This document shows, one piece after another, positions 36,569-53,130 of a stretch of 64,000 nt of DNA. The stretch is from the NCBI RefSeq assembly GCF_051903065.1, contig NZ_CP178438.1, one strand, 5' to 3'. The position numbers and the translations under genes are program-made. Below the pieces are notes generated by a model. That model was not told the DNA's origin, searched no databases, and worked only from the letters and a program-made list of their open reading frames with translations. Within the stretch, counting starts at the first letter, position 1, and each line of letters opens with the position of its first letter. The stretch is from Escherichia coli (GTDB taxonomy: Bacteria > Pseudomonadota > Gammaproteobacteria > Enterobacterales > Enterobacteriaceae).

Positions 36569-36581
36569 CCTACATGTTCAT

Positions 36582-37046
36582 GCCGGATGCGGCGTGAACG
36601 CCTTATCCGGCCTACGAATGGCGCAAGAATCTGTAGGCCTGATAAGCGTAGCGCATCAGGCATTTGTCACCATTGCCGGATGCGGCGTGAACGCCTTATC
36701 CGGCCCACGAATGGCACGAGAATCTGTAGGCCTGATAAGCGTAGCGCATCAGGCATTTGTCACCATTGCCGGATGCGGCGTGAACGCCTTATCCGGCCTA
36801 CGAATGGCGCAAGAATTGTAGGCCTGATAAGCGTAGCGCATCAGGCATTTGTCACCATTGCCGGATGCGGCGTGAACGCCTTATCCGGCCCACGAATGGC
36901 ACGAGAATTTGTAGGCCTGATAAGCGTAGCGCATCAGGCATTTGTCACCATTGCCGGATGCGGCGTGAACGCCTTATCCGGCTTACGAGTGGCACGAGAA
37001 TTTGTAGGCCTGATAAGCGTAGCGCATCAGGCAATTTGGCGTTGGT
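36582..37046. repeat. tandem REP/BIME array, 5 units of about 93 bp
   Basis: Five near-identical tandem units each containing GCCGGATGCGGCGTGAACGCCTTATCCGGCCTAC and GTAGGCCTGATAAGCGTAGCGCATCAGGC palindromic units. Confidence 0.85.
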
Positions 37047-43401: not shown

Positions 43402-43677
43402 ATGAAAATAATCTCTAAAATGTTAGTCGGTGCGTTGGCGTTTGCCGTTACCAATGTCTATGCCGCTGAATTGATGACTAAAGCGGAATTTGAAAAAGTC
43501 GAATCGCAATATGAAAAAATAGGTGATATTTCAACCAGCAATGAAATGTCGACCGCAGACGCGAAAGAGGATTTGATCAAAAAAGCGGATGAAAAAGGGG
43601 CTGATGTGTTGGTACTGACCTCCGGTCAAACTGACAATAAGATCCACGGCACGGCGGATATTTATAAGAAGAAGTAA
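43402..43677 (+). CDS. yahO: periplasmic YdgH/BhsA/McbA-family (DUF1471) protein
   Basis: 91-aa ORF with N-terminal signal peptide ([21 protein letters not shown]). Confidence 0.8.
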
Positions 43678-43706
43678 TTCTGAACCCTATGTAAACATCC
43701 CCGATG

Positions 43707-44763
43707 GGCTTTGTTGAATAAATCGAACTTTTGCTGAGTTGAAGGATCAGATCACGTATCTTCCCGACAACGCAGACCGTTCCGTGGCAAAGCAAAAGTT
43801 CAAAATCACCAACTGGCCCACCTACAATAAAGCCCTCATCAACCGTGGCTCCATAACTTTCTGGCTGGATGATGAAGCTATTCAGGCCTGGTATGAGTCA
43901 GCAACACCTTCTTCACGAGGCAGACCTCAGCGCTATTCTGACCTTGCCATCACGACTGTGCTGGTCATTAAACGCGTATTCAGGCTGACCCTGCGCGCTG
44001 CGCAGGGCTTTATTGATTCCATTTTTTCTCTGATGAACGTTCCGCTACGCTGCCCGGATTACAGCTGTGTCAGCAGGCGGGCAAAGTCGGTTAATGTCAG
44101 TTTCAAAACGCCCACCCGGGGTGAAATCGCACACCTGGTAATTGATTCCACCGGGCTGAAGGTCTTCGGTGAAGGCGAGTGGAAAGTCAAAAAGCATGGC
44201 CAGGAACGCCGCCGTATCTGGCGTAAGCTGCATCTCGCCGTTGACAGTAAAACACATGAAATCATCTGCGCTGACCTGTCGCTGAACAACGTTACGGACT
44301 CAGAGGCCTTCCCCGGGTTAATCCGGCAAACCCACCGGAAAATCAGGTCAGCCGCCGCCGATGGCGCTTACGATACCCGGCTATGTCACGATGAACTGCG
44401 GCGTAAGAAAATCAGCGCGCTTATCCCTCCCCGAAAAGGTGCGGGTTACTGGCCCGGTGAATATGCAGACCGTAACCGTGCAGTGGCTAATCAGCGAATG
44501 ACCGGGAGTAATGCGCGGTGGAAATGGACAACAGATTACAACCGTCGCTCGATAGCGGAAACGGCGATGTACCGGGTAAAACAGCTGTTCGGGGGTTCAC
44601 TGACACTGCGTGACTACGATGGTCAGGTTGCAGAGGCTATGGCCCTGGTACGAGCGCTGAACAAAATGACGAAAGCAGGTATGCCTGAAAGCGTGCGTAT
44701 TGCCTGAAAACACAACCCGCTACGGGGGAGACTTACCCGAAATCTGATTTATTCAACAAAGCC
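43707..44763 (+). mobile_element. IS903-type insertion sequence (IS5 family, 1057 bp) with 9-bp target-site duplication TCCCCGATG
   Basis: 18-bp terminal inverted repeats GGCTTTGTTGAATAAATC at 43707-43724 and 44746-44763; identical 9-mers at 43698-43706 and 44764-44772; left-end sequence matches the remembered Tn903/IS903 end. Confidence 0.85.
43784..44707 (+). CDS. IS903-type DDE transposase (GTG start, 307 aa)
   Basis: ORF 43739-44707; GTG at 43784 gives the 307-aa length I recall for IS903 transposase. Confidence 0.8.
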   Translation: MAKQKFKITNWPTYNKALINRGSITFWLDDEAIQAWYESATPSSRGRPQRYSDLAITTVLVIKRVFRLTLRAAQGFIDSIFSLMNVPLRCPDYSCVSRRAKSVNVSFKTPTRGEIAHLVIDSTGLKVFGEGEWKVKKHGQERRRIWRKLHLAVDSKTHEIICADLSLNNVTDSEAFPGLIRQTHRKIRSAAADGAYDTRLCHDELRRKKISALIPPRKGAGYWPGEYADRNRAVANQRMTGSNARWKWTTDYNRRSIAETAMYRVKQLFGGSLTLRDYDGQVAEAMALVRALNKMTKAGMPESVRIA

Positions 44764-44840
44764 TCCCCGATGCGTAAGTTTATCGGTGATCATCTATTGA
44801 AATTTATGCCGGATAAAGCGTTCGCGCTGCATTCGGCAGT

Positions 44841-46427
44841 TCAGCTTTTCAGCCGCCGCCAGAACGTCGTCCGGCTGATGCCTAAATAATTCGCCGCTGC
44901 TGTTTTATCGCCATTAAATTTCTCCAGTGCCTGTTGTGGTGTCAGTAAGCGTGGAGCGGGAGTTTTCGCCGACTCGCGCGCCAGTTCCGGCAGTAGCAGC
45001 TGCAAAAATTGCGGCGTTAAATCCGGCGTCGGTTCCACACTTAAAAATAGCGCCAGTCGCTCCATCATATTGCGCAGTTCACGAATATTGCCCGGCCAGT
45101 CGTAGTGCATCAGCACGGTTTCGCTTGCCTGTAATCCCTGGCGTAATGCGGCAGAAAACGGGGCGGAGAGCGCCGCCAGAGACACTTTCAAAAAGCTTTC
45201 CGCCAGCGGAAGAATATCCGCCACCCGCTCGCGGAGTGGTGGCAATTGCAGACGCAAAATACTCAGCCGATAAAACAGATCACGGCGAAAACGTCCTTGC
45301 TGCATATCTTCTTCCAGATTGCAGTGAGTGGCGCTAATGACCCGTACATCTACCGGAACAGGCTGATGCCCGCCGACGCGGGTGACCTCTTTTTCTTCCA
45401 GCACCCGTAACAGGCGAGTCTGCAAAGGTAGCGGCATTTCGCCAATCTCATCCAAAAACAGCGTGCCACCGTGGGCGATTTCAAACAGCCCGGCACGACC
45501 TCCGCGTCGCGAGCCGGTAAACGCCCCTTCCTCATAGCCAAACAGCTCCGCTTCCAGCAGCGATTCGGCAATCGCCCCGCAGTTGACGGCAACAAACGGA
45601 TGCGACTTTTTGCCCTGTCGCGCATCGTGGCGGGCAAAATATTCCCGATGAATTGCCTGGGCCGCCAGCTCTTTGCCCGTCCCCGTTTCCCCCTCAATCA
45701 ACACCGCTGCACTGGAGCGGGCATACAGCAAAATAGTCTGCCGTACTTGTTCCATCTGTGGTGATTGACCGAGCATATCGCCCAGCACGTAACGAGTTCT
45801 CAGGGCGTTGCGGGTGGCATCGTGAGTGTTATGGCGTAACGACATGCGCGTCATATCCAGCGCATCGCTGAACGCCTGGCGCACGGTGGCGGCGGAATAG
45901 ATAAAAATTCCGGTCATTCCGGCTTCTTCTGCCAGATCGGTAATCAGCCCCGCACCGACCACCGCTTCGGTGCCGTTAGCTTTTAGCTCGTTAATCTGCC
46001 CGCGTGCGTCTTCCTCGGTAATGTAGCTACGTTGATCGAGGCGCAAATTAAAGGTTTTTTGAAACGCCACCAGTGCCGGAATAGTTTCCTGATAAGTGAC
46101 AACGCCGATAGAAGAGGTGAGCTTTCCGGCTTTTGCCAGTGCCTGTAACACATCGTAGCCGCTCGGTTTAATCAAAATAACTGGCACTGACAGGCGGCTT
46201 TTCAGGTACGCGCCGTTAGAGCCAGCAGCGATGATGGCGTCACAGCGTTCGTTTGCCAGTTTCTTGCGGATGTAGGTCACTGCTTTTTCAAAGCCAAGCT
46301 GAATAGGGGTAATGTTCGCCAGGTGATCAAACTCGAGGCTGATATCGCGAAACAGCTCGAACAGGCGCGTTACAGATACCGTCCAGATAACCGGTTTGTC
46401 GTCATTCAGCCGTGGTGGATGTGCCAT
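44841..46427 (-). CDS. prpR: sigma54-dependent activator of propionate catabolism
   Basis: Translation from [16 protein letters not shown] matches PrpR; AAA+ sigma54-interaction domain ([14 protein letters not shown]). Confidence 0.9.
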
Positions 46428-47569: not shown

Positions 47570-47868
47570 GTTGTATTCGACAACCGATGCCTGATGCGCC
47601 GCTGACGCGACTTATCAGGCCTACGGGGTGTACTGAACTGTAGGTCGGATAAGACGCATGGCGTCGCATCCGACAACCGATGCCTGATGCGTCGCTGACG
47701 CGACTTATCAGGCCTACGGGGTGAACTGAACTGTAGGTCGGATAAGACGCATGGCGTCGCATCCGACAACCGATGCCTGATGCGCCGCTGACGCGGCTTA
47801 TCAGGCCTACGGGGTGTACTGAACTGTAGGTCGGATAAGACGCATGGCGTCGCATCCGACAACAATCT
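47570..47868. repeat. tandem REP/BIME array, about 3 units
   Basis: Three about 100-bp tandem units containing GCCTGATGCGCCGCTGACGCGACTTATCAGGCCTAC and GTAGGTCGGATAAGACGCATGGCGTCGCATCCGAC. Confidence 0.8.
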
Positions 47869-52486: not shown

Positions 52487-53130
52487 ATTGTCGGATGCGT
52501 CGCGTGGCGCATCCGACACCATGCGCAGATGCCTGATGCGACGCTGACGCGTCTTATCATGCCTACAGGCCTGAACCGTAGGTCGGATAAGGCGCTCGCG
52601 CCGCATTCGACACCATGCGCCGATGCCTGATGCGACGCAGGCGCGTCTTATCATACCTACAGGCCTGAACCGTAGGTCGGATAAGGCGCTCGCGCCGCAT
52701 TCGACACCATGCGCCGATGCCTGATGCGACGCAGGCGCGTCTTATCATGCCTACAGGCCTGAACCGTAGGTCGGATAAGGCGCTCGCGCCGCATCCGACA
52801 CCGTGTGCCGATGCCTGATGCGACGCTGGCGCGTCTTATCATGCCTACAGGCCTGAACCGTAGGTCGGATAAGGCGCTCGCGCCGCATCCGACACCGTGC
52901 TCAGTGCCTGATGCGACGCTGATGCGTCTTATCATGCCTACAGGCCTGAACCGTAGGTCGGATAAGGCGCTCGCGCCGCATTCGACACCATGCGCCGATG
53001 CCTGATGCGACGCAGGCGCGTCTTATCATGCCTACAGGCCTGAACCGTAGGTCGGATAAGGCGCTCGCGCCGCATCCGACACCATGCTCAGTTGCCTGAT
53101 ACGACGCTGGCGCGTCTTATCATGCCTACC
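52487..53130. repeat. tandem REP/BIME array, about 7 units
   Basis: Seven tandem copies of the GCGTCTTATCATGCCTACAGGCCTGAACCGTAGGTCGGATAAGGCGCTCGCGCCGCATCCGACACC unit between prpE and codB. Confidence 0.85.

Follow-up and report, generated by a model that had tools for sequence, protein, structure and literature searches.

A complete, very recent IS903B insertion between the convergent yahO and prpR genes of one Escherichia coli clone

The yahO-prpR spacer contains a complete insertion element

The window analysed here is a 64,000-nucleotide (64-kb) stretch of Escherichia coli DNA, and all positions refer to it unless another genome is named. Two genes frame the locus. The upstream neighbour, yahO (43402..43677, plus strand), encodes a 91-aa DUF1471/YdgH-BhsA-like periplasmic protein according to its ORF, a match to Pfam PF07338, and the RefSeq annotation, and it reads toward the element described below. 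On the far side of the spacer lies prpR (44841..46427, minus strand), which by its ORF and by the RefSeq annotation of L001 and L004, mapped onto these window positions, encodes a 528-aa protein that activates the propionate catabolism operon prpBCDE and which is convergent with both yahO and the transposase gene of the element. A REP-like palindrome (44805..44838), recognized by its match to the REP core and by a hairpin predicted on both strands, adjoins the prpR stop and is undisturbed by the insertion.

Between these genes lies a complete 1,057-bp insertion sequence of the IS5 family, IS903 group (43707..44763, plus strand). Read directly, its left end is the 18-bp terminal inverted repeat GGCTTTGTTGAATAAATC (43707..43724, plus strand), and its right end (44746..44763, minus strand) is the exact reverse complement of the left, i.e., the two repeats match at 18 of 18 positions, with identity between the ends falling off directly past base 18. 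When up to 3 mismatches are allowed, the 18-mer GGCTTTGTTGAATAAATC has only two sites in the 64-kb window, as compared to 0.05 expected from shuffled sequence. The element is flanked by two copies of the 9-mer TCCCCGATG, one on the left (43698..43706), which is single at the equivalent place in K-12, and one on the right (44764..44772), which was read directly. The identity of two given 9-mers has a chance probability of about 4e-6. Together, the element and both 9-bp duplications occupy positions 43698-44772. A gap of 29 nt separates the element from the end of the yahO stop codon (last base 43677), and one of 77 nt separates it from the prpR stop codon (44841-44843, minus strand); 68 of these 77 nt lie past the duplicated 9-mer.

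The original prediction, made from the sequence alone, had described a 1057-bp element with perfect 18-bp inverted repeats and identical flanking 9-mers, placed about 30 bp from yahO and about 80 bp from prpR, and the direct read bears out each of these points. Its assignment of the element as IS903-type also holds, as the length, the inverted repeats, the 9-bp duplication, and the single ORF encoding an IS5-family DDE transposase are all those of the IS903 group; we refine this assignment to IS903B below. The insertion breaks no coding sequence, with yahO and prpR both intact. For annotation purposes, the extra 1,066 bp between the two genes is mobile DNA.

A composite transposon was considered and ruled out, since the 64-kb window contains no second element and no passenger gene is carried; a search for a further copy of the inverted repeat across the window likewise found none beyond the element's own two ends. 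The element is a plain insertion. With respect to target choice, the flanks AAACA and CGTAA fit the IS903 target motif WTTYA-N9-TRAAW at 6 of 10 positions, versus about 3.5 by chance. This motif represents a preference and not a requirement, and the duplication length of IS903 is 9 bp (PMC2577343, Table 1). Because only 6 of the 10 motif positions match, the site would appear to be an acceptable one for IS903 rather than a preferred one.

The transposase gene is intact in the window

The single gene of the element (43784..44707, plus strand) encodes a 307-aa transposase when read from a GTG start codon at 43784, as supported by the ORF list and by profile matches. The frame remains open upstream to a TTG at 43739, which corresponds to the 322-aa model present in some annotations. 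The product scores 357.6 bits against the NCBIfam model NF033579 (IS5 family transposase), for which the cutoff is 140, and it matches Pfam PF13737 and PF01609 over almost their full profile lengths. At least 1,000 public contigs encode the exact 307-aa sequence, with the name "IS5-like element IS903B family transposase". D121, D193, and E259 are all present in the 307-aa product, and we take these to be the IS903 catalytic triad addressed by mutagenesis; a literature search for the positions of the IS903 DDE residues returned nothing relevant. Since the transposase reading frame is open, this copy should still be mobile. Circumstantial signs of activity, namely the open frame, the intact ends, the very recent insertion, and the many copies in the lineage (discussed below), are present as well.

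A promoter scan of the element produced a single site (43799-43828, plus strand), which lies within the transposase ORF and which we rejected as a promoter, the count of 1 comparing to 1.7 expected in shuffled sequence. The scan found no outward-facing promoter site in the element. Also inside the transposase ORF, at 43989-44007 on the plus strand, the sequence CCCTGCGCGCTGCGCAGGG forms a perfect palindrome rich in G+C, and CTTTATTGAT follows it. This palindrome was flagged by the terminator scan and has a weak Rfam match to ClpQY_promoter; the ClpQY_promoter fragment is below the Rfam threshold and was rejected as a gene. Judging by its sequence, the palindrome could attenuate transcription of the transposase.

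The element matches copies named IS903B

Many copies on E. coli chromosomes and plasmids that bear the annotation IS903B family are 100% identical to the element over its full length (bases 1-1057). The element shares with IS903B the length of 1,057 bp, the 18-bp inverted repeats, the 9-bp duplication, and the single 307-aa DDE transposase; no difference from the IS903B-named RefSeq copies is detectable, such that its location alone is specific to the lineage. Related sequence is widespread, being present in 1,993 of 5,426 complete E. coli genomes, across which 4,732 chromosomal places match the element, as well as in at least 5,000 plasmid records, mostly from Klebsiella, Escherichia, Enterobacter, and Salmonella.

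We also compared the element to IS102 of pSC101 (L005 6916-7972), which is likewise 1,057 bp long and has identical 18-bp ends. The two differ at 78 mismatched positions, for a nucleotide identity of 92.6%. The usual threshold for isoforms is about 95% nucleotide identity. Because 92.6% falls below this value, we rejected identity with IS102, and the comparison points to the window element being a sister of IS102 and not its isoform. As such, the element is best described as an isoform of IS903B, a name that follows the RefSeq/PGAP labels of its identical copies together with the exclusion of IS102, rather than an ISfinder reference sequence. In the literature, IS903B is an IS5-family element of 1,057 bp that makes 9-bp direct repeats (PMC9769513, PMC8431375). 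IS903, IS903B, and IS102 are separate ISfinder entries of 1,057 bp each (PMC8431375), and the identity given in that source is only to a fourth element, ISKpn74, at approximately 89-95%.

The IS903 of the kanamycin-resistance composite transposons Tn903 and Tn602, which we compared by architecture, belongs to the same group and has the same architecture as the window element. In Tn602, copies of IS903 flank aph(3')-I (PMC9282650). In contrast to that arrangement, the window element is single and has no passenger gene.

The site is empty in K-12 and in most complete E. coli genomes

We rebuilt the empty site from both flanks and a single copy of the 9-mer and searched it against the 5,426 complete E. 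coli genomes. The rebuilt spacer is uninterrupted in 5,186 of these, where it is annotated as lying between yahO and prpR. In K-12 MG1655, yahO occupies 346484-346759 and prpR 346857-348443, leaving a spacer of 97 bp, and the alignments of the two window flanks to this genome have exactly 9 bp in common, corresponding to its one copy of TCCCCGATG (L003 1781-1789). The gap of 1,163 bp between the two genes in the window is accounted for to the base as 97 + 1,057 + 9. The earlier statement that the element is absent from K-12 is therefore correct, the MG1655 site being empty with a single copy of the 9-mer.

To locate other carriers, we used a 300-bp probe spanning the left junction, which was fully covered in only four records. 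Two of these, 23CRST027 and 23CRST031, both from human faeces in Santo Domingo, Ecuador, contain the identical junction and are the only 2 of the 5,426 complete genomes to do so. The remaining two records are two assemblies of strain 167, in which the probe matches in two pieces because another IS903B copy sits approximately 300 bp further on, inside prpR. This strain 167 copy (L002 3456-4512) is 98.7% identical to the window element and has the same orientation, but it is flanked by its own 9-bp duplication, ATTGCGCAG, whose target is equivalent to window positions 45069-45077. Whereas the window insertion is intergenic, the strain 167 insertion is located within the prpR coding sequence and splits off its C-terminal end. 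The strain 167 insertion is independent of the window insertion. Nor do the two indicate an insertion hotspot, as two insertions some 300 bp apart are unsurprising among 4,732 chromosomal places.

Predicted consequences for yahO and prpR

A consensus scan found no intrinsic terminator in the yahO-prpR spacer of either the window or K-12, and folding of the empty spacer yields two modest hairpins without U-tracts (z-scores of -2.1 and -1.8). On both counts, the proposal that the insertion destroyed a terminator is unsupported as stated. The first hairpin includes CCCCGAU, which is part of the duplicated 9-mer, and the element has inserted into the 5' arm of this hairpin. The second hairpin is the REP-like palindrome at 44805-44838, which has one mismatch to the REP core GCCGGATAAGGCGTT; this core occurs 15 times in the window as compared to 0.19 expected. 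Following the insertion, the prpR side retains both predicted hairpins, the first because the duplicated 9-mer rebuilds it, while the yahO side is left without either and reads directly into the element. The insertion would thereby part yahO from the two hairpins normally downstream of it. On the plus strand, the terminator scan found no terminator-like site between the transposase stop codon and prpR, such that the transposase gene, with no obvious terminator after it, would now point at the prpR 3' end, and for the same reason transcription leaving the element may run antisense to prpR.

An RNA gene in the spacer was also considered. The Rfam family naRNA4 matches over the REP-like palindrome at 28.6 bits, below its gathering score of 59.5, and was rejected.

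Elsewhere in the window, three intergenic tandem arrays of the REP/BIME type, each with a period of approximately 93-94 bp, are located at 36581-37038, 47575-47863, and 52508-53129, between yahG and yahI, prpB and prpC, and prpE and codB, respectively. Their copy number varies among relatives; for instance, the prpB-prpC and prpE-codB spacers of GDSC2227PM (L007) are shorter than those of the window.

These predictions allow for the possibility that the insertion is functional, i.e., that the loss of hairpins downstream of yahO, or antisense read-through into the prpR 3' end, alters expression and propionate catabolism, and that the insertion has possibly been kept by selection. The position of the element in the 5' arm of the first predicted hairpin, which costs the yahO side both hairpins, would be consistent with such an effect, as would the lack of a terminator-like site past the transposase stop on the plus strand before prpR and the independent IS903B insertion in prpR of strain 167. 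Nevertheless, the insertion leaves both coding sequences and the promoter side of prpR untouched, the spacer offered no canonical intrinsic terminator that could be lost, and yahO already reads toward prpR at the empty site. Moreover, prpR retains 68 nt of its native 3' flank with the REP-like hairpin, next to which the duplicated 9-mer rebuilds the adjoining hairpin, and the strain 167 insertion carries little weight given the number of places in which matching elements are found. Taken together, we consider it unlikely that the insertion is functional in this sense, and a meaningful regulatory effect seems improbable to us; the effect on yahO and prpR expression is probably small.

A stronger form of this idea would hold that the insertion is non-neutral, tuning yahO or the prpR/prpBCDE propionate regulon, and that the region is a recurrent, selected target of IS903B during its expansion. 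If yahO-prpR were such a target, the strain 167 insertion in prpR would fit, yet we regard this as very unlikely.

Evidence for recent transposition within one clone

We compared the window to its closest relatives in order to place the insertion in time. From 23557 to 63857, a span of 40.3 kb, the window and 23CRST027 align without any mismatch, one 1-nt indel being all that sets them apart. A match of this length with no mismatch indicates that the window comes from the same clone as 23CRST027. Among relatives whose site is empty, the closest found is ECNB21-M121, isolated from meat in Zhejiang, which has 3 differences over approximately 39,600 flanking bases. Because this near-identical genome has an empty site, the insertion is very recent, younger than a very shallow split. 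The original prediction had called the insertion recent on the basis of its ends and duplication, and this agrees with both the relative just described and the small number of carriers (2 of 5,426).

The steps by which the locus would have arisen can be outlined from established IS903/IS5-family chemistry. The DDE transposase would bind both 18-bp terminal inverted repeats, the 3' ends of the element would be joined to target phosphates staggered by 9 bp, and gap repair would duplicate the target TCCCCGATG on each side. The product alone fits a simple transposition and a resolved replicative event equally well, and the two cannot be told apart from it.

Rather than having transposed into this site in the clone, the element could have been imported by homologous recombination on a chromosomal segment already bearing the insertion. 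E. coli recombines often, and the product of such an import would look the same. However, the 5,426 genomes include no further lineage with an insertion at this position that could have served as donor, and the flanks, with 3 differences in 39.6 kb from the closest empty-site relative, contain no divergent patch around the element. The lineage also already holds many matching copies as possible sources. An import is accordingly extremely unlikely in our estimation, and the locus is most simply explained by de novo transposition in the clone.

Insertion sequences present in several copies are well known to cause misassembly, but the insertion being a repeat that the assembler collapsed or misplaced is hardly credible, as a misplaced repeat would not duplicate exactly 9 bp that occur only once at the empty site, and the same junctions are present in two independently assembled complete genomes. 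The locus is thus almost certainly the product of one intact IS903B copy having transposed very recently into the 97 bp that separate yahO from the convergent prpR.

The single indel noted above is located within the transposase gene, where the window reads CCCC at 44308-44311 and both 23CRST027 and 23CRST031 read CCC (L001, L004). This is the sole difference of the window from the two RefSeq genomes with the same insertion across the 40.3 kb. Many identical IS903B copies elsewhere read CCCC, as the window does. In both RefSeq genomes the CCC copy at this site is annotated as "frameshifted", whereas the window copy is intact; the shift would end the transposase near residue 178, ahead of D193 and E259. 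In 23CRST031, a different IS903B copy is annotated as intact, and for this reason the CCC deletion is not a systematic error affecting every copy. Two readings fit the deletion: a true mutation that inactivated the copy, or an isolated homopolymer miscall or assembly error.

The number of places matching the element is 20 per chromosome in both 23CRST027 and 23CRST031, as compared to a median of 2 and a maximum of 47 among carriers. In ECNB21-M121, the chromosome has 12 matching places and a 372-kb plasmid has 3, with at least 1 per replicon being 100% identical. These counts suggest an ongoing expansion of IS903B in this lineage, to which the insertion adds one data point; no open question becomes testable through it. 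So far, the insertion has been seen only in the source of the window and in the two Ecuadorian isolates of human faecal origin, in keeping with its earlier description as a strain-specific marker, and it provides a precise, PCR-testable marker of one E. coli clone. It is otherwise an ordinary, known element behaving as expected. Copies of IS1 are also present in the clone (23CRST031, L008 3708-4104, together with whole-genome counts).
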